A DNA stretch of 64,000 nucleotides from an uncultured bacterium (GCA_964387845.1 CAYLXA010000011.1:34715-98714), one strand, 5' to 3'; counted from the stretch's first letter, positions 14,517 through 64,000 are shown. Numbers and translations: made by a program. Notes: generated from the letters alone by a model not told the origin.

Positions 14517-14549
14517 TTAAAAATCAAACTCATGTAGTTTGATTTTTAG
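14517..14549. promoter_or_regulatory. near-perfect 14-bp inverted repeat (ttAAAATCAAACT-catgt-AGTTTGATTTTtag); candidate operator or 5'-UTR hairpin
   Basis: Arms match 13 of 14, including a perfect 11-bp core. Positioned between the promoter and the ATG at 14593, directly upstream of two HTH-domain genes. Confidence 0.45.
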
Positions 14550-14592
14550 CGTTAGTTTCCGGACGCTAAATTCCAAAAGGAGGGACTTCAGC

Positions 14593-47063: not shown

Positions 47064-48094
47064 CGACAAAGAATTATTTTAAGTCAATTATTGAAGGCAG
47101 GCGCAACGACGCCGACGCTTCGTTCTGGAAACCCTTGCTGTCACTGGCAAGCCGTTTGTACCGGACGGCGGTCGAGGCGCGCAAGTCGTTTTACGACAAA
47201 AAAGTTTTCAAATCCAAAGCGCTTCAGATTCCGGTGATCAGTATCGGAAACATCACCTGGGGCGGCGTCGGGAAAACACCGCTTACGCAATACATCAGCC
47301 GGTTTTATTTGGACCAAAAGAAAACCCCGCTCATTTTAACGCGCGGTTACGGTAATGACGAAACGCGTGAGTTCCAGACCAAGGTTCCGGAAGCGCTTTT
47401 GGGCGTCGGTAAAAACCGTTTTGAAGTGGCCAGTCAGCTGCTCAAAAGCCAAAAAGCCGATGCTGCGATTTTAGACGACGGTTTTCAACATTACCAGCTT
47501 GCGCGCGACCTTGATATTGTGGTGATAAATGTGCTCAATCCTTTCGGAAATGAAAAACTCATTCCGCGCGGTATTTTGCGCGAACCGCTTGAAGCGCTTG
47601 ACCGGGCGAATATCGTTGTATTCAACGATGTGAATTTAATTTCGCGCAAATCATTCGAATCCATCCGCGACCGCGTGAAACAACTAGCGCCGCGCGCGGA
47701 ACTGATCGAAGCGCAGCATGAGCCGCTCTACTTTTATTGGGCAAAATCAAAAGCGCGCATGGACCTGAACAAGGTCAGCGGAAAGCCGGTTACGACATTC
47801 TCGGGCGTCGGAACCCCTCGGTCATTTCAGCTTTTGCTTAATTCCTTGGGCGTGAAAACCGTCCGGAATTTTGAATTTTGTGACCATCATCCGTTTTCGG
47901 AAAAAGAGCTCCAGGAAATTCAGGAGGTCAAACGGTCAAGCCAGTCCGAGTTTGTCATCACGACCGAAAAAGACCTTCTCAGAAAAGAAGAGCTGATCAC
48001 AAACATCCTAGATCCGCTGGTTTTAAAAATTTCGATGCGCATCACGGTCGGGGAATCGATTTTGCAGGACCGTTTGCGGCACATTTTGCGTTAA
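47060..48094 (+). CDS. lpxK: tetraacyldisaccharide 4'-kinase
   Basis: P-loop GNITWGGVGKTP. ATGA overlap with waaA. Confidence 0.88.
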   Translation: MTTKNYFKSIIEGRRNDADASFWKPLLSLASRLYRTAVEARKSFYDKKVFKSKALQIPVISIGNITWGGVGKTPLTQYISRFYLDQKKTPLILTRGYGNDETREFQTKVPEALLGVGKNRFEVASQLLKSQKADAAILDDGFQHYQLARDLDIVVINVLNPFGNEKLIPRGILREPLEALDRANIVVFNDVNLISRKSFESIRDRVKQLAPRAELIEAQHEPLYFYWAKSKARMDLNKVSGKPVTTFSGVGTPRSFQLLLNSLGVKTVRNFEFCDHHPFSEKELQEIQEVKRSSQSEFVITTEKDLLRKEELITNILDPLVLKISMRITVGESILQDRLRHILR

Positions 48095-48107
48095 AAAGGA
48101 GAAAAGC

Positions 48108-50051
48108 TTGTTCGATTCACTGGCTTATCATACGGTTAAAATTTTCGCGGGGTTTATCCAGCGCATGCCGGTCGGTTTTAATTTTTTTCTGGCCGGTATT
48201 TTGGGGAATCTCGCGTATTTATTGGATAAACGGCGCTACGTGGCTTATGCCAATCTGAAGGCCGCCTTCGGTACCGAATGGACGCCGCGTGAAATCAGGG
48301 CGATTATCCGGAAAAGCTACGTCCATTTTGCGAAAACTATGATGGAAATTCTTTATTTTCCAAAAATGGATAAAGCTTATATCGAAAAATATATTCAAAT
48401 GAATAATCCCGAGTTTTATCAAGAGGGTGTCAGCGGTAAAAAAAGCACTATTTTTATGATGGCACACTTTGGCAATTGGGAGCTTGCGCAAATTTATTCC
48501 GGCATTCTAGACAAACCGCTTCATATTTTTGCGCGTGATCAAAAGCACACCCGCTTGAATGATTTTTTAAATCAACTCCGCGCCGCGCACGGCGCCCAAA
48601 CCATTTCAACCTCACGGGTCCGCGAACTTATGCGGGCCATTCGGGAGAAAAGGGCCATCGGCGCTTTGGGCGATCAGGGCGGCGGGCCGGATGGAGTTAT
48701 CGCGCCGCTTTTTGGGCGCAAAGCCACATTTCCGAGAGGGCTGGTTTCGCTTGCCGCGAGAATGGGAGCATCGATTGTGCCTGCTTTTATGATTCGCCAA
48801 AATGGCCCGTATCAGCTGATCCAGGTTTTTCCGCCGCTTAATTTAATTCAGACAGGCAATCAGGAAAACGATGAAATTAAGAACAATCAGCTCTTTTTAA
48901 ATCACCTGGAAAAAATGGTCCGGCAATATCCGGAACAGTGGTTATGGCAGTATAAATGGTGGAAATTTTCCAGGACCAAGAAAGTTTTGATTTTGGAAGA
49001 TACGAAAGCCGGCCATGCCGCACAGGCGCGCGCGATCGGCCGGGAATTTGAGAGACTGGCCAAAGAATTGCCCGAGGGTTATGAAATCAAAACCGAATAT
49101 GTGAAGGTTGAATTTAAAAACAAACTGGCTTCGATTCTATTTTTTCTCGACTCGTTTTTCTTTTACCCTTTTGCGCAAAGCCGGCTTTGGATTATGAAAT
49201 GGTATTTGAAGCCGTCTTCGTTCGAAAAAATCAAAAATGTGCATGCGGACGCCGTTGTGGCCTGCGGCTCCAAATTAACACCGGTTGCGTTATGGCTTTC
49301 GCGAGAAAATTTGGCCAAAACGGTTATCGTGATGAAACCTTCGTTCCCATACCAATTTGCGCATTTTGACCTTGTGATTTTGCCGAAGCATGACCATGCC
49401 GGGAATTTGAAGTCTCATCATATCCGGACCACGGTTGCGCCGAATCTGTCGGATATCGATCATTTGAATCACCACCGGCAGAAATTGGCGGATGTTTTGC
49501 ATCTCAACGGAAAATCAAGGCTTTCGATTTTTATCGGCGGTGACTCCAAATCATACAAATTGGAGAAGTCAAAGATGGAAAATTGGCTGAATACTTTGGC
49601 CGAGCTCAGCCGGAAAAAACATATGGAGTTTATGATCACAACATCGCGCAGGACAGGCGCCGGCATTGATGCGCTTGTCCGAGAAAAAACGGCGAAAAAT
49701 CCGAATTGTAAGTTGATGGTGATTGCAAACGAGAAAAATATCGAAGGCATTACTTACGGGATGCTCGCTTCTTCCGATGTGGCGGTTGTGACCGAAGACA
49801 GCGTATCGATGATTTCGGAAGCTTTGAGCGCGGGGAAGCGCGTGATTGTGCTCAAGGCCGGAAACGGCCAATTACCGCGTAAACACCGTGAATTTCAGGA
49901 ACTTTTGGCGAGCGAGGGTTTAATCGAAGTGGCAACTGCCGATGATTTTTCTGTTAAATTCGAAACTGCTCAAAAACACGGAGCAAATACAAATTTGATC
50001 GAAGCAGAACGAAAATTAATTCGGGATGAGCTCAGAAAAATTTTAATCTAG
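48108..50051 (+). CDS. fusion protein: N-terminal LpxL/HtrB-family lipid A late acyltransferase (~290 aa) plus a C-terminal ELM1/DUF1022-like domain (~350 aa)
   Basis: TTG start with AAGGAG 9 nt upstream. The N-domain has HFGNWE and a WLWQYKWWK ending typical of Lip_A_acyltrans. The C-domain has IFIGGDSKSYK and ITTSRRT motifs like ELM1-family proteins. Confidence 0.7.
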   Translation: MFDSLAYHTVKIFAGFIQRMPVGFNFFLAGILGNLAYLLDKRRYVAYANLKAAFGTEWTPREIRAIIRKSYVHFAKTMMEILYFPKMDKAYIEKYIQMNNPEFYQEGVSGKKSTIFMMAHFGNWELAQIYSGILDKPLHIFARDQKHTRLNDFLNQLRAAHGAQTISTSRVRELMRAIREKRAIGALGDQGGGPDGVIAPLFGRKATFPRGLVSLAARMGASIVPAFMIRQNGPYQLIQVFPPLNLIQTGNQENDEIKNNQLFLNHLEKMVRQYPEQWLWQYKWWKFSRTKKVLILEDTKAGHAAQARAIGREFERLAKELPEGYEIKTEYVKVEFKNKLASILFFLDSFFFYPFAQSRLWIMKWYLKPSSFEKIKNVHADAVVACGSKLTPVALWLSRENLAKTVIVMKPSFPYQFAHFDLVILPKHDHAGNLKSHHIRTTVAPNLSDIDHLNHHRQKLADVLHLNGKSRLSIFIGGDSKSYKLEKSKMENWLNTLAELSRKKHMEFMITTSRRTGAGIDALVREKTAKNPNCKLMVIANEKNIEGITYGMLASSDVAVVTEDSVSMISEALSAGKRVIVLKAGNGQLPRKHREFQELLASEGLIEVATADDFSVKFETAQKHGANTNLIEAERKLIRDELRKILI

Positions 50052-50061
50052 AGGAAACCTC

Positions 50062-52233
50062 ATGAGAGTACTTCAAGTATTGCCGGAACTGAATGTGGGC
50101 GGGGTTGAACGCGGCGTGATTGACCTTGCGCGCGCCATGAAAAAACACGGCGAAGAAATTCATGTGATGTCGCGGGGTGGTGCGCTTGTCCAGGAACTCG
50201 TGAAGATGGGCGTGCCGCATTATGCGCTGCCGGTTCACGATAAATCAATTTGGTCATTGCGCCTCGTGAAGGAAATCGCAAAAATCATCGAACGTGAGCG
50301 CATCGACATCGTGCATGCCCGAAGCCGCGTGCCGGCTTGGCTTGCATATCTGGCAGCACGCCGCACGAATTGCGATTTTATTACGACCTGCCACGGTTAT
50401 TATTCGAAGCATTTTCTAAGCCGCATCATGGGCTGGGGAAAGCGCGTGATTGTAATCTCGCACAGCATCGGCCGCCGCATGATCGATGATTTTCACGTGC
50501 CGCCCGAGCGGATCCGTCTCATCCACCGCGGCGTAGATTTAACGCAGTACACATTTTCACCCGAAAAATATCTGAAGCCGGCCGGCGAGAAATTCAAAAT
50601 CGTCAACATCGGCCGCATCACGCCCATCAAAGGCCAGAAGGAGTTCATCCAGGCGATTCATCTCCTGAGCAAACAAATTCCGAATGTGGAAGCTTGGATT
50701 GTTGGTTCGGCGGATGACCGGAAAATGGAATATTTCGAAGAGCTGAAACTTTTTGTCGAACGGACCGGCATGACCAAGCACGTAAAATTCTTGGGAACGA
50801 GGCGCGATATTCCGGAGCTTTTGCGCGAGGCCGACCTACTGGTGCTTTCCACGAAAATTCCGGAAGCATTCGGGCGCGTGATCATTGAGGCAGGGGCAGT
50901 CGGGACAGCGGTGTGCGCATCGCGAATCGGCGGCATTCTCGATATCGTTGAAGACGGCAAAAACGGGCTTCTTTTTTATCCGCTTCACATCGAAGAAATG
51001 GTCAAAGCGATGACACAGCTGCTCAAAAACCGGAAGCAATGCTACGACTTCGCGCACAAGCTCCGCGAGAAAGTCGAGCGTGAATTCAGTCTCGAGCAAA
51101 TGGTCGACAAAACACTCGAAGTTTACCGCGAAACCCGTCAGGAGCGCAGGATTTTGATTATTAAACTTGGCGCGGCAGGCGACCTGGTTTTGGCGATACC
51201 AAGTTTCCGCATGCTGAGGAAAAAATTTCCGAATGCGCACATTTCACTTTTGGTTGATTCAAAATTGACCTCGCTCGTAGAAAATTGCCCCTATATTAAT
51301 GAAGTGATCGCTTATGACCGCGGCGAAAAAACAAACCGGCTGCGAAGGCTTCTGAAACTTTCGAAAAGCCTGGCTGAGCGGCGCTTTGATTTGTCGATCG
51401 ACTTACAGAATAACGCCAAAACGCATTTAATCAGCTTCCTGGGCCGTATCCGCAACCGAATCGGGTACTTGAGGGGATGGAGCGGCCATTTGCTCAGCAA
51501 GCCCGTGTTAGAGCCCAAGCAGCTTTTGGCGCCGATTGAACATCAGTTCGAGCTCCTGAAACGTGTCGGAATCACACAGCTCGATACCGAAATGGAATTG
51601 TGGCCGACGGAACAGTCGGAAAAGTTTGCGGAAGAGCAATTGAATACAAACCAGCATTCACATCAGCCGCTTGTCGGCTTTGTGATGGGTTCAAGTCCGG
51701 GTTGGCCCACAAAACGCTGGCCGGTAGAACATTTCCGAGAGCTTGCGGAACGCATTGTGCAGGATTTAGACGGTAGAGTCGTCCTTTTGGGCGCGCCGGG
51801 CGAGGAAGGCCTTGCGGATGTATTTAAAAATCATTCTCTGGGCACAGACCGCCTCATTAATTTGATCGGAAAAACCACTTTTTCGGATATGGCAAGCGTG
51901 ATCAAGAGGTCGAATGTATTGGTATCCGGCGATAGCGCACCCATTCACATTGCGGCTGCTACGAAAACAAAACTCGTCGCCTTTTTTGGGCCCACGGAGC
52001 CTAAGCGCCATTTGCCGCCCGGTGCCGATCACGCGGTTTTGGTGCGGCGGATTCCGTGCCAGCCGTGTTACTCGGGCCATTGTAAAAACCCGGATACGTT
52101 GGAATGCCTCAAAAAAATAAAAGTAAACGAAGTATTTGAGCAAGTGAAATATCAGCTTGCATCCGCACAAAAGAGCCGCGCGAAGCATGACGCTTCGGAA
52201 GATAAGGTCGGCACGCCGGCGGAATCCGTTTAG
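50062..52233 (+). CDS. fusion protein: N-terminal GT4-family glycosyltransferase (RfaG-like) plus C-terminal GT9 heptosyltransferase domain
   Basis: The N-domain has the EX7E motif (EAFGRVIIEAGAVGT). The C-domain starts RILIIKLGAAGDLVLAIPSF and ends with the Cys-rich CQPCYSGHC segment. Confidence 0.75.
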   Translation: MRVLQVLPELNVGGVERGVIDLARAMKKHGEEIHVMSRGGALVQELVKMGVPHYALPVHDKSIWSLRLVKEIAKIIERERIDIVHARSRVPAWLAYLAARRTNCDFITTCHGYYSKHFLSRIMGWGKRVIVISHSIGRRMIDDFHVPPERIRLIHRGVDLTQYTFSPEKYLKPAGEKFKIVNIGRITPIKGQKEFIQAIHLLSKQIPNVEAWIVGSADDRKMEYFEELKLFVERTGMTKHVKFLGTRRDIPELLREADLLVLSTKIPEAFGRVIIEAGAVGTAVCASRIGGILDIVEDGKNGLLFYPLHIEEMVKAMTQLLKNRKQCYDFAHKLREKVEREFSLEQMVDKTLEVYRETRQERRILIIKLGAAGDLVLAIPSFRMLRKKFPNAHISLLVDSKLTSLVENCPYINEVIAYDRGEKTNRLRRLLKLSKSLAERRFDLSIDLQNNAKTHLISFLGRIRNRIGYLRGWSGHLLSKPVLEPKQLLAPIEHQFELLKRVGITQLDTEMELWPTEQSEKFAEEQLNTNQHSHQPLVGFVMGSSPGWPTKRWPVEHFRELAERIVQDLDGRVVLLGAPGEEGLADVFKNHSLGTDRLINLIGKTTFSDMASVIKRSNVLVSGDSAPIHIAAATKTKLVAFFGPTEPKRHLPPGADHAVLVRRIPCQPCYSGHCKNPDTLECLKKIKVNEVFEQVKYQLASAQKSRAKHDASEDKVGTPAESV

Positions 52234-52235
52234 CA

Positions 52236-53249
52236 ATGGTCATTATTTGCGTCCTCAAGAATTGGCTCGGCGATGTGATTTTCACATCGCCTGCGCTCCG
52301 GACGATCCGGATGAATTATCCGGCCGCACAGATTATTTGTCTGGCGCCCAAACGCTGCTCGGATATTTTGCGGGCAAACCCCAATGTGGACGAAGTCATT
52401 TCATTTGACGAACGTAGCGAACAAAAAAGTTTATCGGAAAAATGGAAGCTGATTTTAAAGCTGAGGCGGTTTAAGCCGGATCAAGTTTATTTGTTTCACA
52501 GGTCGCTCACGCGCGCATTTTTGATGTTCCTGACCGGCGCTAAGGAGCGGATCGGGTATGCCGGCAAGCGCGGTTTTCTATTAACAAAAGCAGTTGCCGA
52601 GCCCAAAGAAAGAATGCACGCGGTTGATTATAATTTAGAGCTTTTGCGAAGAGCCGGATTTCAAGTCACGGGAGATGCTCTCTATGAATTCCGCTTTGAC
52701 AAGAAAGATTTGGAAAACGCGAAAAGAATCATTACGGAAGCGGAATTGGGCCATGAACGGATTATCGCGATTCACCCGGGCGCCAATTGGCCGCCCAAAC
52801 GCTGGCCAATCGAGCATTTCCGCGCGTTGTCACTTGAGCTGACGCGCCGTTACCGGGTGTCGGTTGTGATTACGGGCGGCGCCGATGACCGCGAAGCGGC
52901 CGAGAAAATTGCGGCTGATGCCAGTCATCCGAACATTCGGTCACTTGCCGGAAAAACAAGCTTAAAAGAGCTCGGCGCATTATTTTCACTTTGCACGCTT
53001 ATGATTTCTTCCGATTCGGGGCCGCTTCATATCGCAGGCGGCGTCGGTACAAACGTGCTCGGCATTTTCGGGCCTACGAATCCTGCGCTCACCGGCCCTC
53101 GGGGCAGGGGTAAAAATGTGGTCATTCATTATGTGCCGAAAGGAATGAAATCGCCTTGGTTTGGTGACGAATTTCCTCAGTCCGGCTGGATGGAATTAAT
53201 TACGGTCAATGAAGTTTTACAGACTATCGAACGGGAAAGGCTTTTGTAG
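52236..53249 (+). CDS. GT9 family ADP-heptose:LPS heptosyltransferase
   Basis: VLKNWLGDVIFTSPALRTI start and the C-terminal GPLHIAGGVGT motif. Confidence 0.8.
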   Translation: MVIICVLKNWLGDVIFTSPALRTIRMNYPAAQIICLAPKRCSDILRANPNVDEVISFDERSEQKSLSEKWKLILKLRRFKPDQVYLFHRSLTRAFLMFLTGAKERIGYAGKRGFLLTKAVAEPKERMHAVDYNLELLRRAGFQVTGDALYEFRFDKKDLENAKRIITEAELGHERIIAIHPGANWPPKRWPIEHFRALSLELTRRYRVSVVITGGADDREAAEKIAADASHPNIRSLAGKTSLKELGALFSLCTLMISSDSGPLHIAGGVGTNVLGIFGPTNPALTGPRGRGKNVVIHYVPKGMKSPWFGDEFPQSGWMELITVNEVLQTIERERLL

Positions 53250-53250
53250 G

Positions 53251-54183
53251 ATGGATCTTTCAAAGGTTGAAAAAATCTTGGTCGTGACGCTGAGTAATTT
53301 GGGCGATATTGTGCTCACGACACCGGTGATGGCAGCGCTGCGCGACCGATTTCCAAAAGCATTTATGACAGTTATTGTCGGGCCAAAAGGCAAAGACCTT
53401 TTAGCCAACAGCGCGACGATCAACGAAATTTTGATTTATGATAAAACGAAGCCGCTTTTCGAAAGGGCGAAATGGGTCTTGGAACTTCGGAAACGGAAGT
53501 TCGATCTTGCCGTCGACCTTCGCAATACAGCAATCCCACTGCTTGTCGGCGCACGATATTTTAACAGCATCTTTTTTGATCATCGCGAAAAGCGAGCCCG
53601 GAAAAAGCATTTAAGCCGGATTCAATTTTTGGGGATCGGAGAGCCGAAGAGCCGGTTTCAATTTTTTACGCCGGATGAAGAAAAATCGGCGCTTGCGAAA
53701 TTGAGAAAAGCCGGTGTGTTCAATGAATCTTGGATTGCGATTGTGCCGGGCGCGGCCAACCATTTGAAGCGCTGGCCGTATGAGCGTTATGCTGAAATAG
53801 CAGCTCACTTTAAACAGAAAGGATTTCAAACGGTTATTGTGGGAAGCGGCGCCGAACGTGCGATGGGCGACCTGGTTGCTAAGTGCAATCCGGGCATTGG
53901 CATTATCAATGCCTGCGGTTCATTTGAGATCCGCGAGGTGGCAGCTGTTCTGAGTCATTCGAAATTGATTGTATGCAACGACAGCGGCCTGATGCATTTG
54001 GCAAATGAGCTTGATATTCCTGTGGTTGCTATTTTTGGGCCCACGAATCATTTGCAATACGGTAAGTTTGGCCCTAAAAACCGGGTGGTTCACGGCGACG
54101 GCAGCCAGTTTTCTATTCATCAAATCAAAACTCCGGATGTTGTCCGCGCGTGTGAGGAATTATTAAATGGCGCCCAACATTAA
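53251..54183 (+). CDS. GT9 family heptosyltransferase
   Basis: ILVVTLSNLGDIVLTTPV start and GLMHLANELDIPVVAIFGPT motif. Confidence 0.8.
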   Translation: MDLSKVEKILVVTLSNLGDIVLTTPVMAALRDRFPKAFMTVIVGPKGKDLLANSATINEILIYDKTKPLFERAKWVLELRKRKFDLAVDLRNTAIPLLVGARYFNSIFFDHREKRARKKHLSRIQFLGIGEPKSRFQFFTPDEEKSALAKLRKAGVFNESWIAIVPGAANHLKRWPYERYAEIAAHFKQKGFQTVIVGSGAERAMGDLVAKCNPGIGIINACGSFEIREVAAVLSHSKLIVCNDSGLMHLANELDIPVVAIFGPTNHLQYGKFGPKNRVVHGDGSQFSIHQIKTPDVVRACEELLNGAQH

Positions 54184-55231
54184 CCCGGGAAAAATCAAAC
54201 GCATTTTGCTGGTTCGTACAGACCGCATTGGTGATGTGGTGGTCACAACGCCGGTTTTTCGTGCCGTTAAGGAACAATTTCCAGCCGCACATCTTGCCAT
54301 TCTCGTCGACAAAGCGCTTCGCGATTTGGTGGAAGGACATCCGGATTTAGATGAAGTTATTTTGTATGATAAAAAAGGAAGCGAAAAAAGTTTGCTGGGA
54401 GCTTTCCGCTTTGCTCGTACTTTAAAACAAAAAAAGTTTGACGCTGCCATTCATTTTCATCCGCGCGCCCGCGCATACTGGACAAGTTTTCTGGCCGGCA
54501 TTCCGGTTCGAATCGGATACAAAAGAAAGAACCATTGGCTGCTTACGCATTCGATCAAAGACAATAAGGGCGAAGGGAGAAAGCATGAAGCGGAGTATGT
54601 TTTTGATTTGCTGGCACTTTTAGGAATCAAGCGCCCCCAAAAACTGATTGCTAGCATACCGCTTCAGGAAAAGAGCCAGGAAAGTGCAGAGCGGCGCTTG
54701 AGCGGCATCGGCCGGTTTTTTGCAGTCCACCCGAGCGCCAGTTCGCCGTCTAAAATTTGGCCGGCTTCGTATTTTGCGGAAGTCGCGGATTTTTTAGCGC
54801 AAAAATTTCAGCTGACACCGGTTTTAATCGGCGGAGCTTCGGATTCGAAGCAGGGCAAAACCGTTTTCAGTTTGATTAAATCAAAATCGATTAACTTGTG
54901 CGGCCAATTAAGCTTGGGTGAATTGGCCTGGGTGCTCAAAAAATCCGAATTGGTGATTTCGAATGACTCCGGGCCAGCACATATCGCTTCTGCGGTCGGA
55001 GCGCCCGTCATTTCCATTTTCGGCCGAAGTTTGGCCGGCCTCGGGCCTGTGCGCTGGCATCCGCTCAATGAAAAGAGCTGGTATCTGCAGAAAGACGTGG
55101 GCTGTGCGGTTTGCCTTGCGGATTTATGCCAGATTGAGTTTAAATGCCTGACCGAATTAAAGCCTGCGGATGTGATTCAATTGATCGAAGAAAAACAAAG
55201 CGAGATTTTTCAGCATGCAAAAGCCCGTTAA
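54167..55231 (+). CDS. GT9 family heptosyltransferase
   Basis: ILLVRTDRIGDVVVTTPV start and GPAHIASAVGAPVISIFG motif. Confidence 0.8.
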   Translation: MAPNINPGKIKRILLVRTDRIGDVVVTTPVFRAVKEQFPAAHLAILVDKALRDLVEGHPDLDEVILYDKKGSEKSLLGAFRFARTLKQKKFDAAIHFHPRARAYWTSFLAGIPVRIGYKRKNHWLLTHSIKDNKGEGRKHEAEYVFDLLALLGIKRPQKLIASIPLQEKSQESAERRLSGIGRFFAVHPSASSPSKIWPASYFAEVADFLAQKFQLTPVLIGGASDSKQGKTVFSLIKSKSINLCGQLSLGELAWVLKKSELVISNDSGPAHIASAVGAPVISIFGRSLAGLGPVRWHPLNEKSWYLQKDVGCAVCLADLCQIEFKCLTELKPADVIQLIEEKQSEIFQHAKAR

Positions 55232-56366
55232 ACGAGTGCTTCTCATTCATCCTTTCGGAATCGGCGATGCGCTTTTCATGACGCCCGTGATTGATGCGTT
55301 GAAGCAAGCCGGTGCCGAAAAAATCGATTTGCTTTTGGGCAGCCGGACAAAAGCCGTTTTTGAGCATAACCCGTCCGTTGATGAAATTTTCGTTGTTGAC
55401 CGAGACAAGATCCGGAGCCAGTCAACATTCCGTAATATTTTGGAAACAGCGAAACTGGTTCTTAAACTCCGGAAAAACCGGTATGACCATCTGTTTGATT
55501 TCTCTTTGGCGCGGCAATACGCATTTTTTGCTTTTTTATTTCTCAACATTCCGAAACGCATCGGATTTCATTATAAAAGGCGCGGCATTTTCCTGACACA
55601 CAGGATGGTTCTCGAGAAAAGTTTTTCCGGCAAGCACGTGATTGAATATTATTTAGAACTTTTGAAATTCGTCTCTATCCGGCCGTCTACGCGCTCGATC
55701 CAACTGTCCATCACAAAAGAAAATGAAGACGAAGCAGAGGGTGTTCTACGCAAAGAAAACGTTCCGCCATTTTTTGCCGTTGCGGTCCCGGGCGGCGGCG
55801 AATCCTGGGGGAAAGATGCCCGGCTTAAGCGGTGGCCGACGGCGCATTTTGCGAAATTGTTTGAACTTATCGACAAAGACAAAAGTTTAGGATCGGCGCC
55901 TTTCAAAGTTGTTATTTTGGGCGGCAAAAGTGAATCGGAGCTTGCCGAATCTCTAAAAGCTTTGAACCCCGGCCGCTTTATTAATTTAGCGGGGAAGCTG
56001 CCGCTTCTTGCTTCGGCGGCGGTTTTAAAACGCGCACGGCTTCTTGTGGCCAACGACGGCGGTTTGGTGCATGTCGCAGCGGCCGTTGGGACGCCCACGA
56101 TTGCTTTATTCGGGCCGGTTGACCCGAAAGTTTACGGCCCGTATCCGCTTCACCCGGCGCGTATCGCAGTCACAAACGACGGACCGGAATGCCGTCCGTG
56201 TTATCAAAATATGCGTTATAATAGCGCCTGTGAACATGTGGAATGTTTAACCGGACTTTCGCCGGACGGTATTTTTTACCGGCTCAGTGAGTCCGGATTT
56301 TTTGAACGAATTCAAAAAGCGCCGGTTTCTGCGGCAGCCGATACTCATTTATATGAAAATCAATAA
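55215..56366 (+). CDS. GT9 family heptosyltransferase
   Basis: VLLIHPFGIGDALFMTPV start and GLVHVAAAVGTPTIALFGP motif. Cys-rich ECRPCYQ segment. Confidence 0.8.
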   Translation: MQKPVKRVLLIHPFGIGDALFMTPVIDALKQAGAEKIDLLLGSRTKAVFEHNPSVDEIFVVDRDKIRSQSTFRNILETAKLVLKLRKNRYDHLFDFSLARQYAFFAFLFLNIPKRIGFHYKRRGIFLTHRMVLEKSFSGKHVIEYYLELLKFVSIRPSTRSIQLSITKENEDEAEGVLRKENVPPFFAVAVPGGGESWGKDARLKRWPTAHFAKLFELIDKDKSLGSAPFKVVILGGKSESELAESLKALNPGRFINLAGKLPLLASAAVLKRARLLVANDGGLVHVAAAVGTPTIALFGPVDPKVYGPYPLHPARIAVTNDGPECRPCYQNMRYNSACEHVECLTGLSPDGIFYRLSESGFFERIQKAPVSAAADTHLYENQ

Positions 56367-57159
56367 GATTTGGTGGCTTATTATTTTGTCATTGGCGCTC
56401 AGCGCATGCGCCCATAGACCGCGCGCCGTTCAATTTCCGAGTAAAATTGAAAAGCCGAAATTTACGATCCCGCTCGGTGAAAAAATCAACTACAGTATCC
56501 GCTGGCTCGGCTTTGAAGTGGGCACCGCGCAAACGGAAGTGAAGGAAATTGTGCAGATTAACGGCCGCGATGCTTACCACGTCGAAGTGAAAGTACGCTC
56601 GAATCGGCTGATCAGCTTGATTTATCCGGTCCGCGACGAACACCATAGTTACATTGATGTCGAACATCTTTACTCGCTTCGCTATGAGAAAAAGTTGAAA
56701 GAGGGAACCTACGAAGCAGATGATTTAATCGAATATGACCAAATTAATCACAAGGCGCGTTACGAGTCGCGCAGAAACGGGACGATCAAAGAAATGCTGA
56801 TTCCAAAAGACGTTCAGGACCAGCTTTCGTGCACATATTGGTTCCGCATGCAGGAAATGAAGCCCGGCGACCGGCTCCAAATTCCGGTCAATGTCGACGA
56901 GAAAAACTGGAATTTGGAAGTTCAAGTGCAGGCATGGGAAGAGCTGGAAGTCGACGGTTTTGGCCGGGTAATTGCAATCCGCGCAGAACCTTTGGCTCGG
57001 TTTCACGGCTTGTTTGTCCGGAAAGGGCGCGCCTGGGGCTGGATGGGAACGGACCATAGGCGCATTCCGCTTTTAATGAAAACCGAAATTCCGATTTTAG
57101 GTTCGATTGAAATGGTAATTACGGAATACAAGTACGGCGATGACCACATCAAAGCATAA
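56353..57159 (+). CDS. DUF3108-family lipoprotein
   Basis: Start at the ATG that yields the lipoprotein signal MKINKIWWLIILSLALSAC, with lipobox LSAC. Beta-rich body. Confidence 0.65.
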   Translation: MKINKIWWLIILSLALSACAHRPRAVQFPSKIEKPKFTIPLGEKINYSIRWLGFEVGTAQTEVKEIVQINGRDAYHVEVKVRSNRLISLIYPVRDEHHSYIDVEHLYSLRYEKKLKEGTYEADDLIEYDQINHKARYESRRNGTIKEMLIPKDVQDQLSCTYWFRMQEMKPGDRLQIPVNVDEKNWNLEVQVQAWEELEVDGFGRVIAIRAEPLARFHGLFVRKGRAWGWMGTDHRRIPLLMKTEIPILGSIEMVITEYKYGDDHIKA

Positions 57160-57979
57160 AAAGAAACATCAGAAACTCATCAAGAAGCGCGGCCGCCGCC
57201 GTTTTCGCGCGCAGGTTTTGCTGTGGATCGCGGCGTTTTTGGCCGCATTTTATCTTTTCACATTCCGCGAAATTCCGGTCTTGATGTATCACTTTATCGG
57301 GACCGAAGCCGAAGCGCGCGAGAACTCTTTGATTGTTTCCGCCAAAACGTTTGACCAGCAGCTTTCTTGGCTTCGTCAATGGGGTTATCGGATTTACTCG
57401 TTGGAGGAATATGAGGCGCTCAGGGCTCACCGTTCGTTTTCTTTCGAAAAGGGTGTTGTGATTACGTTTGATGACGGCAATATCGGATTCTTGACGAATG
57501 CGCTGCCGATTCTCGAGAAATACCAAGCGCCTGCAGCCAATTTCATGGTGACTGATAGCATGCGCAAAAAAACAAACGGCAGCGTGTCGGTGGAAGATGC
57601 GCGCAAACTTGCCGAAAATCCGCTGATTACGCTAGGGTCCCACACCGTTCATCACGTCGGTTTGATGGACCAATCAGAGCTTGCGCTTCGGAAAGAAATA
57701 GCGGGTTCACGGCGCGAACTTTCGAAAATGCTCGGCAAAGACATTGCCTATTTTGCGTACCCGGGCGGATTTTTTGACGAAGAAGCGCTTGAGATGGTCA
57801 AATCGGCCGGTTATCGGCTGGCATTTACGACTTCGTGGAAGCGTTTGAAAGGCGACCAGGAAAATGCGTATTCAATCGTGCGCGTGAAGGTAACCGAAAA
57901 AGACAGAAATCCGGCCAACTTTTGGTACAAAATATCCGGCTTTTACACGCTCTTGAAACGGCTGCAGAACGCATTTTAG
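57140..57979 (+). CDS. polysaccharide deacetylase (CE4 / NodB homology domain) with an N-terminal membrane anchor
   Basis: VITFDDGN (Asp-Asp metal motif) and the LGSHTVHH His motif. N-terminal TM segment. Confidence 0.75.
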   Translation: MTTSKHKKKHQKLIKKRGRRRFRAQVLLWIAAFLAAFYLFTFREIPVLMYHFIGTEAEARENSLIVSAKTFDQQLSWLRQWGYRIYSLEEYEALRAHRSFSFEKGVVITFDDGNIGFLTNALPILEKYQAPAANFMVTDSMRKKTNGSVSVEDARKLAENPLITLGSHTVHHVGLMDQSELALRKEIAGSRRELSKMLGKDIAYFAYPGGFFDEEALEMVKSAGYRLAFTTSWKRLKGDQENAYSIVRVKVTEKDRNPANFWYKISGFYTLLKRLQNAF

Positions 57980-58768: not shown

Positions 58769-58936
58769 TTCAGTTAGTTCTTGAAAAGGACTAATTTCCT
58801 AACTTCTTAAAGACTTTTCTAACAAAAAATCTCGTCACGACAGATGTAAATCTGGTGATACTAGATTTTTCATGTTTTTTAAATGCCGGACATTGACACA
58901 GTCAATTTGGTTGTGTAACTTTTACGCAAACCAGTC

Positions 58937-61900
58937 ATGAATTCGACCCTTGCTAATCGTTCAGAAACCGGAAGTTTTTCGCGAAGTAAAAACCACCGGC
59001 CCCTCTTTGTTCTTATTTTTCTTTACGCTATGTTTTTCCTGGTTTCGAAACCATCCTTTGCCGACACCATTGTTCCGGGCGGGAATATTTCATCTAACAT
59101 AACCTGGACTTCCGCCGGAAGTCCGTACATTGTTCAGGGTAGTATCACGGTTAGTTCGGGCACTTTAACCATTGAACCGGGTGTTGTCGTAAAAGCAGAG
59201 CCAAATGCAAACGTAGAAATCCGGACTTCCGGTGGAAAACTTTTTGCGGAAGGAACGTTAGAAGAGCCAATTTTGTTTACTTCAAACAGCGCAAATCCTT
59301 CCCCGGGCGAGTGGAAAGGCATTTTCTTTGATGGAGGCACCGCGACCGATTCGTCTCTTAAGCACTGCACAATTGCCTATGCTCAGAATGGAATCCGAAT
59401 TAGTCAAAATGTTTTTATGTTTGTGCAAAACACCACGTTTCAAAACAATTCAAGCGTTGCTGTTTCAGCGCCTACTCTCAAAGAAACCCGTAATTTCGGC
59501 TCTGGAAACACTTATATTGGAAATGGCAGAGATGCAATTGAGTGGACTGCTACCTTAACCGCTACGGTCGATCAAGATATGACACTTGCCAGTCAAGGTG
59601 TCCCGTATATTGCGAATGGGAGTATCAACGTAGCTCGTTTTGTTGGTCTTTCGACTATGACTGTCCAGCCTGGTGTTGAAATCCGATTTAAACCGAATCA
59701 AAATCTAAAATTTGAAGTTGGCGGAGGTGGTTGGCAGGGCAGAGTACTTTTTCAAGGCTCGCAAGCTCAGCCGATCCGTTTAACAGTTGATAGCCAGAAC
59801 CCTACGCCCGGAAGCTGGCAGGGAATTCGGTTTGACACTGGAGCACAGCCAGGTTTTATCCTAGATTATGTCATTTTTGAATATGCCGGCGCCCCCGCTG
59901 TTAGTGTTCCGCAGGATCTTGGTTTTTATACCATCTCCCATTCTACTATTCGTCATTCATCCGGAATCGGCGTATCTTTAAGAGGGAATGGCGCGTTACA
60001 AAATAACATTATAGAAAATAATGGCGGTCAAGGAATTGAAATTTTATCCGGTTCACCATCCATCCTATCCAACACGGTTCAACAAAATGCATCAACGGGT
60101 CTTTTGATGCAATCAAATGCGGGAACTCCATTAATTGATGACAACCATTTTCTGAATAATGGAAGCCGAGCTGCGAACATCTATTCATTAAGGCAAATTC
60201 GCAATATGACTCAGAATAATACTTTTTCCGGAATAACCAATCCAATTTGCCAATGTATTGAATTTATGAATACGGCACCTACTTTGATTAATTATGATAC
60301 GACACTTTATGATTTTACTTACCCTTATGTGTTTAATGGAAGTATCCAGGTTTATCGGGAAGTTCCTCCACATTCAACATTAACCATTCAACCTGGAACC
60401 GAACTTAAATTTAAGCCAGGCCAGAATTTAATCCTCGGAATTGGATATAGACCCAACCAGTATGTGGGCGCTTTAGTTGCTTTAGGCGATGATCAAAATC
60501 CTATTCGTTTTAGTTCTGCTGCTGCAGTGCCGGCACCCGGCGATTGGCAAGGGTTGAAATTGGAAGGATTTATGATTCCCGATCAAATGTCCAATGTGAT
60601 AGTTGAGCATGCCGGAAATGCCGGTATTACCGTATGGGATACGCATCTTGAAATTAACAATTCGACCATCCAAAATAATTCCGGCGATGGTATGCAAATC
60701 GTTGGTTCCGGCCAGCTGGATGTGAAAAACACTTCATTTCTCTCTAACGGATTAAAAGCCATTAATCATACAGGATCTTCCGGCGCGGTACTCGCTCCGC
60801 TTAATTGGTTCGGAAGTTCGAACGAGCCATCCGCACAAGTTTCAGGTAGTGTTCAATATGAACCTTGGCTTATTTCAGCACCAACGACGCCGTTTCAATG
60901 GACAGCGGCCAATCTTTCATCCAAACAGTTTAATCCCGACGAAAGTTCGGCAACATTTCAATTTAGTCATCCGGAAGCTGCCAATTGGATGCTTGAAATT
61001 TTAAATTCAGACCTCAGCCAGGTACTAAAAACGATCAAGGGGCAAGGCCCGAATCCGTCCATTATTGAATGGAATGGAAATGATGATAGTAAAGAATTTT
61101 TGCCGGATGGTATGTATAAGTATCGTTTTAGCGGCTCAAGCCAAATAACCAGCCAACAGGCTGCGCCTGCGTTGGGCAACATTCAATTAAATAATGCGTT
61201 GCCTGCGGCGGAAATTATTTTGCCGACCGCTTCTCAAATTATTCCCGGCCATACAATTGTGCAAATCCAAGGAACTGCTCAAGGAAAGGGTTTCACCAAT
61301 TACACAGTCGAACGTTTTGATACGTTTCAGCAAAACAATTTTGTCCAAATTGCGGCAAGTACTTCTCCTGTTTCGGACGGTGTGCTGGCCAATTGGGATA
61401 CCGGAAATTTAGCCAACCCCATTTTCAAAACTTTGCGTTTAAGCGTTAATAATAATGCTTCTCATACCGCATTTGTTGAAATTCCGGTGACCATTTTTAA
61501 TATCTTTAATATTGCAAGTTCTCAAGGTTTTATTTCACCCAACGGCGATGGCTTGTTTGAATCCACGACAATTTCTGCAAACAGCACTTTAACTGCGGAT
61601 TGGTTGCTCCAAATTAAGAATTCTGTTAATCAAGTTGTTCGAACCGTTAATGCTGCCAATGAATCATTTTTCTCATTCGAATGGAATGGCAAGGACGACA
61701 GCAATGTTTTATTGCCTGACGGTGTTTATACCTATCATTTTACAATCACAGAGCCTGACTCGGGAGTGAATGTGCCTGCACAGCAAGGTCCGAGCGTTAT
61801 TGTCATCGATACAACAGTGCCGCAGCTTGCGATAAGCGATCCACAGATAGATCAGGTAGTTTTTGGGCTTTCATTTCCTGTAATCGGCACCGTGAGTGAT

Positions 61901-63046
61901 TTGAATATTCTTAGTTACAAAATGTTTTATGCAAATGCCGAAAATCCGAACAATTTTATTCAGTTTGCAAATGGTTCTTCAAACGTAAACAACAGTTTGC
62001 TTGGCGTCTGGACAAATTTAATCAATTTGACCAATGGCGGATACATAATCCAACTGCAGGCGACCGATCGAGGCGGCAATACAGCCGAAATTTTTGTGCC
62101 GGTTCAGCTTGACAATATCACCATTACGAATGTTGATCGTGCGCCGCTATTTTTTGATCCGCTCAATAGTGAAACAACCCAGATTTCTTATGCAATTAAC
62201 CATGATGCTTTTATAACGATCAGGATTTTTACCGAGACAAACGGTCAATTGGTTCGAACTTTGGTTAACCAAGCTCCCAAAAAAGCCGGTACCAATTTTG
62301 ACGTTTGGGACGGCCGCAATAACTCCAACCAACCGATTCCTTATGAAGCGTATTATTTCCGAATTGATGCTGAATCTCAAGCCGGAGAAGGCCGTCATGG
62401 TCAATTTGTTGATGTATTTGGCGGGTCGCCCGGGCCTAATGATTTTGAAGTTAATTTGCAAAATCTAGATTTTAATCCTTATCAAAATGAAGAATTGCTC
62501 ATTCAATACCCGGTGCATGCTCCCGGCCGTCAATTGGTGGAAATTCGTCAGGGGAATACCGCGACACGGCTTCGATTAATTGTGGAGAACGAGCCAAAAA
62601 TTCAAGGTTTAAGAACGGACAGATGGGACGGCCGCGATGATAATGGAAATATTTATTCCGGCTCTTATCATCTCTTTTTTGGAATCGCAGTTCCATTTCG
62701 CAGCAAAACCATTATTCTCAAAAACACACTTCCGGCACCTGACAATCTTTTATCAGAACCTTACTTGATCATTCCCGCATACGCTGGAGTGAGCAGCTTG
62801 CAATATGATTTATCCGAAGAATCCGGTGTTACAGTTATCGTGAAGGATTCCTTAGGTAATTATGTCAGAACTTTACTGGATCAAGTGGTTCAAGCAGCGG
62901 GAAATTACTCTGTGCTATGGGACGGAAAAAATGATTTAGGCGAATTTATTTCGGGGACCGGCAATTATTATTTCTACGTTCAAGCGGCACGGTCAGGCTC
63001 AAGCGAATCAGTTCAGGCGATAGGGAATATTCGGGTGCAAAATTGA
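58937..63046 (+). CDS. 1369-aa secreted surface protein: signal peptide, ~650 aa of right-handed parallel beta-helix repeats (pectate-lyase/NosD-like), then five FlgD-Ig-like domains
   Basis: Signal peptide LFVLIFLYAMFFLVSKPSFA. Recurring beta-helix turns (NNSGDG, GNGA, TIQNN). Five modules with the W-x-G-x-D...G-x-Y signature (EWNGNDDSKEFLPDGMYKY, FEWNGKDDSNVLLPDGVYTY, VWDGRNNSNQPIPYEAYYF, RWDGRDDNGNIYSGSYHLF, LWDGKNDLGEFISGTGNYYF). Confidence 0.8.
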   Translation: MNSTLANRSETGSFSRSKNHRPLFVLIFLYAMFFLVSKPSFADTIVPGGNISSNITWTSAGSPYIVQGSITVSSGTLTIEPGVVVKAEPNANVEIRTSGGKLFAEGTLEEPILFTSNSANPSPGEWKGIFFDGGTATDSSLKHCTIAYAQNGIRISQNVFMFVQNTTFQNNSSVAVSAPTLKETRNFGSGNTYIGNGRDAIEWTATLTATVDQDMTLASQGVPYIANGSINVARFVGLSTMTVQPGVEIRFKPNQNLKFEVGGGGWQGRVLFQGSQAQPIRLTVDSQNPTPGSWQGIRFDTGAQPGFILDYVIFEYAGAPAVSVPQDLGFYTISHSTIRHSSGIGVSLRGNGALQNNIIENNGGQGIEILSGSPSILSNTVQQNASTGLLMQSNAGTPLIDDNHFLNNGSRAANIYSLRQIRNMTQNNTFSGITNPICQCIEFMNTAPTLINYDTTLYDFTYPYVFNGSIQVYREVPPHSTLTIQPGTELKFKPGQNLILGIGYRPNQYVGALVALGDDQNPIRFSSAAAVPAPGDWQGLKLEGFMIPDQMSNVIVEHAGNAGITVWDTHLEINNSTIQNNSGDGMQIVGSGQLDVKNTSFLSNGLKAINHTGSSGAVLAPLNWFGSSNEPSAQVSGSVQYEPWLISAPTTPFQWTAANLSSKQFNPDESSATFQFSHPEAANWMLEILNSDLSQVLKTIKGQGPNPSIIEWNGNDDSKEFLPDGMYKYRFSGSSQITSQQAAPALGNIQLNNALPAAEIILPTASQIIPGHTIVQIQGTAQGKGFTNYTVERFDTFQQNNFVQIAASTSPVSDGVLANWDTGNLANPIFKTLRLSVNNNASHTAFVEIPVTIFNIFNIASSQGFISPNGDGLFESTTISANSTLTADWLLQIKNSVNQVVRTVNAANESFFSFEWNGKDDSNVLLPDGVYTYHFTITEPDSGVNVPAQQGPSVIVIDTTVPQLAISDPQIDQVVFGLSFPVIGTVSDLNILSYKMFYANAENPNNFIQFANGSSNVNNSLLGVWTNLINLTNGGYIIQLQATDRGGNTAEIFVPVQLDNITITNVDRAPLFFDPLNSETTQISYAINHDAFITIRIFTETNGQLVRTLVNQAPKKAGTNFDVWDGRNNSNQPIPYEAYYFRIDAESQAGEGRHGQFVDVFGGSPGPNDFEVNLQNLDFNPYQNEELLIQYPVHAPGRQLVEIRQGNTATRLRLIVENEPKIQGLRTDRWDGRDDNGNIYSGSYHLFFGIAVPFRSKTIILKNTLPAPDNLLSEPYLIIPAYAGVSSLQYDLSEESGVTVIVKDSLGNYVRTLLDQVVQAAGNYSVLWDGKNDLGEFISGTGNYYFYVQAARSGSSESVQAIGNIRVQN

Positions 63047-64000
63047 TTTCAAAATTACTATATAAACTTGTCGGCCTTTTTTTAATTGTAAGTATGGCGA
63101 CTCAGCCGGTGTATGCCGCCGAAAACTTCAAATTAAATGGCGGCACATTGCCGCCTGCTCCGCATGATCCAAATGAACAGGCAGGCCAAACGCCGTGCCG
63201 GGGCGATAGCGAAAGCTGTGGGGATAATCCGGTGGATCCGGTTTACCTCGACCGCGGGGAATTTATTTACCGCGCAACCGACCTCATGCTTCCGGGCCGC
63301 GGGATTAATTTAGAGCTCAAGCGAACTTATCGTTCCAACTCGGCTTACCATTCCCAATTCGGTTACGGCTGGGATATTAACTACAACATGAAAATCCGCA
63401 AAATGGCGGACGGCTCTTTTACATTTCTTTCAGGCACAAACAGAAAAGAAGGCCTTCAAGCCGGCGGCGGAGGGCCTGCGGGATTTTATGACACTCTGGA
63501 AGTTCTGCCAAACAACACTTACATTTTGACGCGTAAACACGGTGACAAAGTTTTCTTTGATAGCAATGGCAACGCCACACGCATGGAAGACAGGTTCGGT
63601 AATTTTCTCACGCTTACCTATGATCCGGCCGGCGCGCTTCCGTTAACAGGTCCTTCTGCTTATTTTGTTAATCAAACCGAAGGCGTTGTGGCGCTTGAAT
63701 ATCGCCTGATGCGCGTTGAAGATTCGCAAGGCCGTTATTTTCAATTTTTCTATGACTCAAGAGGCCGGCTTGACTATGTGACCGATTCAACAGGAAGAAC
63801 CGTTGATTATGAATATGATTCTAACAATGACCTTCGCTCCATCACATCGCCGGCGGTCGAAGAGTATCCGGAAGGCCTCACAACCTCATTTACTTACAAC
63901 ACCAAACACAAGCTGGAAACGGTTACGAATCCCCGCAACCAAACGTTCGTTACCAACGTTTATAATGCGCAAGGGAAAATTCAAACTCAAACGATGCTTG
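63043..64000 (+). CDS. RHS/YD-repeat protein (polymorphic toxin family), 3' truncated by the window end
   Basis: TTG start inside ATTGA, overlapping the upstream stop. Signal peptide ISKLLYKLVGLFLIVSMATQPVYA. Hallmark RHS N-terminal region DPVYLDRGEFIYRATDLMLPGRGINLELKRTYRSNSAYHSQFGYGWD, followed by YD repeats (YEYDSNNDL, GRLDYVTDSTGR). Open frame to position 64000. Confidence 0.7.
   Translation, partial: MISKLLYKLVGLFLIVSMATQPVYAAENFKLNGGTLPPAPHDPNEQAGQTPCRGDSESCGDNPVDPVYLDRGEFIYRATDLMLPGRGINLELKRTYRSNSAYHSQFGYGWDINYNMKIRKMADGSFTFLSGTNRKEGLQAGGGGPAGFYDTLEVLPNNTYILTRKHGDKVFFDSNGNATRMEDRFGNFLTLTYDPAGALPLTGPSAYFVNQTEGVVALEYRLMRVEDSQGRYFQFFYDSRGRLDYVTDSTGRTVDYEYDSNNDLRSITSPAVEEYPEGLTTSFTYNTKHKLETVTNPRNQTFVTNVYNAQGKIQTQTML

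Follow-up and report, generated by a model that had tools for sequence, protein, structure and literature searches.

A beta-helix/FlgD-Ig protein as a candidate partner of a predicted Sec-exported RHS protein in an uncultured bacterium and its relatives

Is a large secreted protein whose gene runs into that of an RHS protein a chance neighbour or a dedicated partner, and, if the latter, what might the two do together? The question is raised by a stretch of DNA of 64,000 nucleotides from an uncultured bacterium (GCA_964387845.1, CAYLXA010000011.1:34715-98714), which we call the window and whose positions are counted from its first letter. At its 3' end lie a gene for a protein with a beta-helix and FlgD-Ig domains (gene 1) and, directly downstream on the same strand, the 5' part of a gene for an RHS/YD-repeat protein (gene 2). 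An original prediction, made from this sequence alone, saw in the two genes a two-component delivery or adhesion system for a toxin. The delivery of RHS/teneurin-like toxins is understood only for the forms mounted on the T6SS (type VI secretion system) and for those of the Tc complexes. In this study, comparison with related genomes supports gene 1 as a representative of a protein type that is the dedicated partner of one RHS clade, and we consider it rather probable (about 60%) that a conserved, Sec-dependent RHS polymorphic-toxin cassette begins in the last 5 kb of the window, with genes 1 and 2 as its first two members acting as a targeting and toxin unit.

The gene 1 protein has two halves. 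Pfam recognizes Beta_helix (8.8e-16) and NosD (7.8e-08) in it, together with FlgD_ig (2.7e-29, three stretches above threshold) and CHU_C (1.8e-11, residues 865-938, overlapping one of the FlgD-Ig-like modules). A motif scan located three TLTIxPG starts of beta-helix modules (residues 76, 240, and 481), each module following the pattern TLTIxPG...PxPGxWxGI, and five W[DN]GxD signatures of the FlgD-Ig type (residues 712, 916, 1124, 1230, and 1328); two other immunoglobulin (Ig)-like domains sit between the five FlgD-Ig domains of the stalk. AlphaFold2 models residues 43-650 as a single rigid right-handed beta-helix (pLDDT 92.7, pTM 0.89) and residues 645-1369 as tandem all-beta sandwiches (pLDDT 87.7). 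The open reading frame (ORF), the Pfam matches, the five motifs, and the models all agree with the 1369-residue protein of a beta-helix and five FlgD-Ig modules that had been predicted. As modelled, the protein is a member of the right-handed parallel beta-helix (PbH1/CASH) class, an assignment that does not extend to enzymatic activity. Its N-terminus, ...PLFVLIFLYAMFFLVSKPSFA followed by DTIVPGG, reads as a Sec/signal peptidase I signal peptide with the cleavage site between SKPSFA and DTIVPGG, and the mature start DT[IV]VPGGNI is kept in a homologue at locus L083.

Foldseek places the beta-helix beside PL6 alginate lyases, the K1 capsule lyase tailspike, Pel9A, and Ag43 (E 3e-5 to 1e-2, TM < 0.25), the fold search with the Ig stalk returned generic Ig/macroglobulin (MG) arrays only (macroglobulin/complement-type, TM about 0.15), and a search of the PDB with the gene 1 protein found no relative at the sequence level. 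Because these fold matches are weak and generic, we make no claim of enzymatic activity. Homologues with the same architecture are present in the Omnitrophota and other phyla, with identities of up to 47%. A HMMER search with the Ig stalk retrieved 532 proteins at E<=1e-30 among 1.84 billion cluster representatives, and dozens of these are collinear over the whole stalk, at their own C-termini. Judging by these 532 cluster representatives, the system could be widespread among bacteria of the environment.

Gene 2 starts inside the stop codon of gene 1, as had been noticed before: the bases of TGA (63044-63046) are shared with those of TTG (63043-63045). Upstream of ATG 63094, this TTG is the sole start codon in the gene 2 frame. 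Translated from it, the protein begins (M)ISKLLYKLVGLFLIVSMATQPVYA followed by AENF, a predicted signal peptide to which the signal peptides of the partner RHS homologues can be aligned. We prefer TTG as the start because the homologous RHS proteins all begin with an aligned signal peptide; ATG 63094 was tried as the start and rejected, since it would remove this conserved signal peptide. From TTG the frame has no stop for 319 codons, up to the end of the window. Besides the Pfam matches listed in Table 1, the fragment matches NCBIfam YD_repeat_2x (1.1e-07) and, partially, RHS_core, and it is 79%, 68%, and 67% identical to the N-termini of the RHS proteins of L083, P0121, and L081, respectively. 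By its repeats and N-terminal DUF6531, the translated fragment is a member of the RHS/YD family, and the homologue alignment, DUF6531, and RHS_repeat matches bear out the original prediction of a signal-peptide-bearing RHS/YD reading frame that starts at TTG. No terminator was found between gene 1 and gene 2.

How regularly do such genes stand together? In a forward test, one genome per GTDB species was scanned with an alignment of the gene 1 protein, and 79 loci were obtained, 17 of which are matched in the beta-helix half as well as in the Ig half. In 12 of these 17, a DUF6531-RHS gene lies downstream on the same strand (L003-L009, L014, L016, L017, L019, and L020); the 12 loci come from Omnitrophota, Verrucomicrobiia, Nitrospirota, Geobacter, and Planctomycetia. 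In L002, the first residues of the RHS protein are encoded in the last 160 nt of the contig, and in L010, L027, L034, and L041 the contig ends no more than 3.3 kb after the big gene, the remaining 3' space in L027 being taken up by accessory genes. Four look-ups of exact proteins (P0002/L081, P0007/L163, P0009/L164, and P0006/L165) show the big gene, one or more accessory genes, an RHS gene for 1349-1476 residues, and a small ORF. The genes flanking the cassette differ at each locus, and the pairing extends over Omnitrophota, Planctomycetota, Verrucomicrobiota, and Nitrospirota, plus Geobacter. We looked for the upstream gene without an RHS partner elsewhere; among homologues with 27-47% identity in five phyla, no full-architecture locus with enough downstream sequence was found to lack an RHS gene.

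The reverse test started from the RHS side. Metagenome contigs of the Joint Genome Institute (JGI) were scanned with the RHS N-terminus, which gave 80 loci, and the count was limited to those whose upstream sequence extends over 3 kb or more. Where the RHS N-terminus is at least 39% identical to that of the window, the big protein and/or accessory genes are encoded upstream in 15 of 16 loci, versus 5 of 20 where the identity is below 39%; in several of these 20, nothing related is seen although the upstream sequence spans 10 kb. This difference indicates that the pairing is specific to a single clade of RHS proteins. Of the 62 GTDB loci matched in the beta-helix half alone, 53 have no RHS gene in the fetched flanks, and in the other nine (L012, L013, L021, L029, L032, L053, L057, L069, and L077) beta-helix and RHS are joined in a single giant ORF. 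The order in one polypeptide is beta-helix, DUF6531, and RHS in P0118 by Pfam, and beta-helix before RHS in L032. Such fused proteins link the two functions.

The junctions and the divergence of the two genes lead in the same direction. Besides the window, seven loci have a stop/start overlap of 4 nt or 1 nt where the big gene meets the RHS gene, with ATGA in L111, L087, L098, and L102 and TAATG or TGATG in L017, L016, and L083. Across 14 loci, similarity in the last 330 residues of the big protein follows that of the RHS N-terminus (Mantel test, Spearman rho 0.72, p 2e-4) more closely than similarity in the beta-helix half does (rho 0.36, p 0.04), a pattern that shows the two to be inherited together, the head varying more freely, and does not by itself prove contact. 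In other words, same-strand adjacency across phyla, the reverse test, overlaps, fusions, and co-divergence support, at the level of sequence comparison, the view that this type of protein is a dedicated partner of one RHS clade and not a chance neighbour, in line with the original prediction.

The claim that the system has two components needs a revision. It stands for the window, whose cassette, as read from its gene order, is the minimal two-gene form; most relatives have three or four components, their additional genes lying next to this pair or separating its members. One of the additional genes encodes a PD40 (TolB-like) beta-propeller. The other encodes a protein, here called X, of 240-400 residues with a signal peptide, an FlgD-Ig motif, and a conserved C-terminal domain; its short forms (Table 1), in which the signal peptide is followed by a lipobox-like cysteine (...TTGC, ...FIGC, or ...ATGC), are probably lipoproteins. 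In L163 (16657-18651) and L165 (16501-18468), PD40 and X are fused into a protein of 655-664 residues, and both the junction from the big gene to the accessory gene and that from the accessory gene to the RHS gene overlap by 4 nt. In L083, whose RHS protein is the closest relative (79%), the gene order is PD40, X, an 816-residue beta-helix/FlgD-Ig protein, and RHS. A big gene that directly adjoins its RHS gene is found again, independently, in L111, L087, L098, L102, L016, L017, and L020, and because of this recurrence in seven loci, we regard the minimal two-gene form as a stable variant. The C-terminus of the window's big protein is 51% identical to that of P0002. A fusion by which X was absorbed into the big protein was considered and rejected, because the similarity to X is only about 25%, the level shared among FlgD-Ig domains.

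The relatives also indicate what may follow the first 319 codons of gene 2. Their complete partner RHS proteins are about 1225-1476 residues long, and most of the cores end in ...N.IDPxG[LWY]. The DPxG motif is found at the core end in L017, L006, L014, L009, L020, L003, L083, L081, L085, and L102, with variants in L007 (IDIFGL) and L098 (VDPNGD in the C-terminal sequence). The C-terminal tips, of 110-170 residues, are mutually unrelated in sequence. The tip of L006 is a DUF4329 domain, those of L020, L003, and L014 are basic and of low complexity, and those of L083 (about 13760-14203), L085, L081, and L098, the closest RHS relatives, are glycine-rich, hydrophobic, and glycine-zipper-like, and look membrane-active. 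Small ORFs of 86-235 residues, which belong to no Pfam family, follow the partner RHS genes, and the one in L081 (22510-22872) carries a transmembrane helix at its N-terminus; together with the hydrophobic tips, this is a hint that the toxins of the closest relatives may target membranes and that their immunity proteins may be anchored there. Extra partial RHS ends with small ORFs of their own are present in L081 (22912-26365), L007 (14903-17636), and L017 (20153-23800), which, to judge from their layout, is the classic orphan toxin/immunity arrangement, and a second RHS gene in L165 (23045-26504) has a Tox-REase-7 tip. All of the partner RHS proteins have signal peptides, and Pfam detects no PAAR domain in them. 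From these relatives, we infer a toxin tip and an immunity gene for the RHS gene of the window as well.

Some further observations on these relatives should be mentioned. The tips of L020 and L003, which come from different phyla, have a common basic motif (KHEKGEARRKKD / KGKHEKGQARKQRQ) in Lys/Arg/Gly-rich low-complexity tails. The partner RHS protein of L164 (14916-19346, 1476 residues) contains, as an insertion, a carbohydrate-binding domain of the F5/8 type C (discoidin) kind. The closest complete relative is L081 (1-9472; GCA_900206355.1, OBEQ010342348.1), where just 5' of the cassette stands a giant gene, which encodes at least 8,895 residues with no recorded Pfam match and is followed by a response regulator; giant genes are a trait reported for the Omnitrophota.

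How might a targeting and toxin unit of this kind work? We propose that gene 1 would supply an exported protein of 1369 residues, in which seven Ig-like domains form a stalk and three beta-helix modules a rigid head of the carbohydrate-binding/depolymerase type. As gene 2 starts inside the stop codon of gene 1, the two proteins would be made together and in matched amounts, and, both being exported by Sec, they would form one unit outside the cytoplasm. The head would bind, and possibly cut, glycans on the surface of another cell, be it a neighbour or prey. The RHS capsule would be held by the C-terminal Ig modules and would free a self-cleaved C-terminal toxin at the target envelope, and a small downstream protein would guard the producer. 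The physical complex, the targeting role, and the route through the outer membrane are proposals; we infer the adhesion/delivery role of the gene 1 protein from its domain type and from a weak fold resemblance.

Several points weigh against this picture. There is no evident route for the cassette proteins through the outer membrane. The beta-helix of gene 1, whose lyase and tailspike matches are weak at TM < 0.25, yielded no identifiable catalytic residues, and the co-divergence described above can reflect shared inheritance instead of contact. The start codon proposed for gene 2 is a TTG, and the public gene call on a Logan contig begins at ATG 63094, without the signal peptide. The window cuts gene 2 after 319 codons, so that the core end, the tip, and the immunity gene fall beyond it; the protein collection holds no full-length copy of the gene 2 protein, only partial relatives at 68% and 42%. 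Finally, no homologue of PD40 or X was found in the 64 kb of the window, and as both are missing, the cassette of two genes could be incomplete or rely on genes elsewhere.

Three other explanations were ranked below the targeting and toxin unit. The big protein might serve the RHS protein on the producer side, where it would tether, shield, or help to export the capsule, while targeting would be left to the RHS protein or its tip. The TolB-like PD40 propeller and the lipobox-bearing short FlgD-Ig proteins in the cassettes of relatives suggest such an anchoring in the envelope, and the part of the big protein that co-diverges with the RHS N-terminus is its C-terminal Ig region, not the beta-helix. 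On the contrary, neither the sequence nor the Pfam matches nor the AlphaFold2 models of the big protein contain a recognizable membrane anchor, lipobox, or beta-barrel, and it is glycan-binding adhesins, lyases, and tailspikes that typically have a beta-helix head of this type; we regard a producer-side role as unlikely. It could also be that the genes are co-transcribed yet independent, a secreted polysaccharide-binding or polysaccharide-degrading enzyme or adhesin having come to lie near an RHS gene in variable islands. Its resemblance to the fold of polysaccharide lyases, and the 53 of 62 beta-helix-half-only loci without an RHS gene nearby, would fit this view, as would base composition. 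Gene 1 has a GC content of 0.429, and 0.373 at third codon positions (GC3), versus 0.46-0.52 and 0.49-0.60 in the housekeeping genes of the window, with the RHS fragment intermediate at a GC content of 0.476; this atypical GC3 is consistent with island-type DNA. The objection is that homologues with the full architecture are always followed by an RHS gene where the sequence suffices, over five phyla and at 27-47% identity, and that the clade-specific reverse test, the overlapping junctions, the fusions, and the co-divergence all tie the two genes together. Independence of the genes therefore appears improbable to us.

We give just as little credence to the idea that the cassette of the window is a decayed or incomplete remnant, with an RHS protein that is perhaps truncated or inactive, so that nothing functional would be delivered. 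A window without PD40 or X, the weak TTG start, and a junction of TTGA where several homologues have ATGA can all be read in this way. The same is true of the protein collection, which holds no full-length or partial copy of the window's own RHS protein, and of the only other contig that was found, a 4,969-bp Logan contig with an exact match to the gene 1 protein, which ends inside the RHS gene. Set against this, both reading frames are intact over all of the available sequence, the two-gene form recurs independently in the seven loci named above, and the absence of a full-length protein is expected if assemblies break within the RHS repeats.

Among the known systems, the Rhs effectors of the T6SS (RhsP of V. 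parahaemolyticus, 8h8a; the Rhs core 8qjc; Tse15, 8uxt; and Tse5 of P. aeruginosa) share with the cassette a DUF6531-type N-terminus and a YD shell and, in the relatives, the DPxGL core end, the polymorphic tip, the small immunity-type ORFs, and the orphan tips. The sequence match of gene 2 to solved Rhs proteins is weak (E 5.5e-10 at best), and its DUF6531 domain weakly matches the same region of 8h8a and 8h8b. Unlike these effectors, the present RHS proteins have a predicted cleavable Sec signal peptide in place of PAAR or a VgrG/Eag-binding N-terminus, and they have a conserved beta-helix/Ig partner. A Pfam scan of 52 ORFs of the window (genes 1 and 2 and 50 others) revealed no genes of the T6SS, the type II secretion system (T2SS), the type IX secretion system (T9SS), or Tc toxins; T6SS genes are likewise absent from the annotated related loci, and gene 2 has no PAAR. 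In view of the signal peptide, the lack of PAAR, and the lack of T6SS genes nearby, we rejected a T6SS-delivered Rhs effector.

In the Tc (ABC) toxins, made of TcA, TcB, and TcC, an RHS capsule is combined with a separately encoded large targeting subunit and a beta-propeller, and the genes are adjacent. The cassette is similar in that an RHS capsule is encoded beside a large partner and, in relatives, a propeller; it differs in that a single RHS polypeptide of about 1300-1470 residues replaces the TcB and TcC pair and the partner is a beta-helix/Ig protein. A Tc toxin was rejected, as neither gene 1 nor gene 2 nor their homologues match the SpvB or TcA families. In contact-dependent growth inhibition (CDI) by CdiA/CdiB, a long beta-helical exoprotein shows a polymorphic C-terminal toxin to neighbouring cells, and an immunity gene is adjacent. 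Here, by contrast, the beta-helix is of the PbH1/CASH type instead of being built from filamentous haemagglutinin (FHA) repeats, and the toxin would reside in a separate RHS capsule protein. Two-partner secretion (TPS) and CDI were rejected because Pfam detects no TPS domain in gene 1 and no gene for a CdiB/FhaC or Omp85-type transporter among the neighbours at related loci. As for a sorting domain of the T9SS, the CHU_C match of gene 1 is internal (865-938), and a match to the PorU C-terminus is partial and far below the cut-off; to our knowledge, a T9SS is not known in the Omnitrophota.

Sec-dependent RHS toxins are a recognized class, described as "T2SS/Sec-dependent" in the accessible text of Zhang et al. 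2012 (PMC3482391), in which the terms beta-helix, pectin, and FlgD were not found. DUF6531 has been reported in WapA of S. suis (PMC12704120). The WapA-type toxins of Gram-positive bacteria, and the Sec-dependent RHS class in general, are like the cassette in their signal peptide, RHS repeats, polymorphic tip, and immunity; the differences are the diderm host, with a full lipopolysaccharide (LPS) pathway adjoining, and the conserved upstream partner, with or without PD40 and the FlgD-Ig protein. The bacterial teneurin-like proteins (TLPs), as presented in a structural study from 2026 (PMC13018210), consist of a Sec-exported YD shell with a small polymorphic toxin, adhesion domains, a beta-propeller, an Ig-like plug, and an immunity gene, and the same source states that no delivery machinery is evident. 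The cassettes of relatives similarly have an adhesin, a beta-propeller, an Ig protein, and a YD shell. A TLP, however, is a single polypeptide with a fixed FN-plug/NHL/YD-shell superfold and usually a TIP domain, whereas the cassette consists of separate genes; the propeller of the relatives is PD40, not NHL, the RHS N-terminus is DUF6531, and the form in the window has no propeller. Matches to TEN_YD-shell in the homologous RHS proteins are confined to the shell, and in the gene 2 fragment DUF6531 runs straight into the YD repeats, with no NHL detected by Pfam. Strict identity with the TLPs was rejected, because there is no NHL/FN-plug superfold in one polypeptide. In the TLP survey (PMC13018210), Omnitrophota, Planctomycetota, Verrucomicrobiota, and Nitrospirota were not listed.

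Giant CASH-beta-helix/RHS proteins, in which tandem carbohydrate-binding beta-helices are combined with RHS regions and which are secreted by Sec, have been described from metagenome-assembled genomes of the Planctomycetota-Verrucomicrobiota-Chlamydiota (PVC) superphylum (PMC12057145). They correspond to the fused beta-helix/RHS forms found here. In that source, the subject is one large multi-domain catabolic or adhesive protein, unlike the cassette, and no two-to-four-gene cassette, FlgD-Ig stalk proteins, polymorphic tips, or immunity-type ORFs are described. The cassette is most like the Sec-dependent RHS/WapA class (PMC3482391) and the bacterial TLPs (PMC13018210). No description of the multi-gene cassette was found in the literature searched, in which subscription journals are only partly covered.

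These comparisons point to an undescribed accessory gene set for RHS toxins that use neither the T6SS nor Tc complexes. The gene set is tied to one Sec-dependent RHS clade in at least five phyla and offers concrete candidates for binding, anchoring, and release. It is possible, and we advance it tentatively, that the cassette is an unrecognized RHS delivery apparatus, independent of T6SS and Tc and "split teneurin-like", with the beta-helix/Ig protein, usually PD40 and the FlgD-Ig protein, and the Sec-exported RHS capsule as its parts. The head would recognize or cut the glycans of prey, the Ig stalk would dock the capsule, and the apparatus would serve contact killing, predation, or epibiotic attachment in ultra-small Omnitrophota and other uncultivated diderms. 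If true, this would supply the missing machinery for Sec-dependent YD-shell toxins. The gene set is also a candidate weapon or attachment device in the Omnitrophota, whose predatory or host-dependent lifestyle is known mostly from genome inference.

Table 1. Positions of the features discussed (window coordinates, unless a locus is named; residues are counted from the start of each protein)
Feature	Position	Strand	Basis
Gene 1, secreted beta-helix/FlgD-Ig protein, candidate RHS partner	58937..63046	+	ORF, ATG start, 1369 aa, Pfam
Gene 1, predicted Sec signal peptide, aa 1-42, cleavage between SFA and DT	58937..59062	+	read from sequence
Gene 1, right-handed parallel beta-helix body, three repeated modules, aa 43-650	59063..60886	+	motifs, AlphaFold2
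Gene 1, stalk of tandem Ig-like beta-sandwich domains, aa 651-1369	60887..63043	+	motifs, Pfam, AlphaFold2
Gene 1, FlgD-Ig type domains, about aa 652-750, 860-955, 1062-1160, 1165-1265, 1270-1369			
TTGA overlap, gene 2 TTG start on gene 1 TGA stop	63043..63046	+	sequence
Gene 2, RHS/YD-repeat protein, 5' part, 319 codons, cut by window end	63043..64000	+	open frame, Pfam
Gene 2, predicted Sec signal peptide, aa 1 to about 26, cleavage between PVYA and AE	63043..63120	+	sequence, homologue alignment
Gene 2, DUF6531 (PF20148), aa 65-134, typical RHS N-terminal domain	63235..63444	+	Pfam E 7.9e-16
Gene 2, first RHS/YD repeats of shell, aa 172-319	63556..63999	+	Pfam RHS_repeat 3.6e-15, NCBIfam YD_repeat_2x
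Intergenic region from ArsC-family gene to gene 1, presumed regulatory region of cassette	58769..58936	+	168 bp, no ORF
Short forms of X in relatives	L003 16196-16930; L019 13499-14236; L027 14467-15297		

As for the host, the best named relatives of the TopA protein encoded in the window, with 61-70% identity, are almost all Candidatus Omnitrophica. The 50 scanned ORFs other than genes 1 and 2 are housekeeping genes, such as rpsB, tsf, pyrH, leuS, pyrG, ilv/leu, aro, and topA, and further include a XerC/D-type recombinase, lpxB, lpxK, an MsbA-like ABC transporter, and a Kdo transferase. Directly 5' of the cassette stand a run of heptosyltransferase-family genes, a polysaccharide deacetylase gene, and an ArsC-family gene. 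From the low GC and GC3 of gene 1 given above, the cassette may be acquired DNA, or codon use in gene 1 may be relaxed. A scan for the sigma-70 consensus, which leaves other promoter types outside its scope and is uninformative for this phylum, found no promoter-like site 5' of gene 1.

The LPS gene block immediately 5' of the cassette (45774-57979) contains genes for a Kdo transferase, LpxK, a DUF3108 protein, and the polysaccharide deacetylase, as well as a fusion of a lipid A acyltransferase with an ELM1-like domain (48108-50051), a GT4-GT9 fusion (50062-52233), and four consecutive GT9 heptosyltransferase-family genes. Elsewhere in the window, the ORF at 14539-15111 unusually pairs a bactofilin domain with a DNA-binding domain, HTH_17, at the C-terminus. 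A close relative of the host is represented by a JGI/Logan contig of 439,576 bp, on which P0125 is encoded, a TopA protein 89% identical to that of the window.

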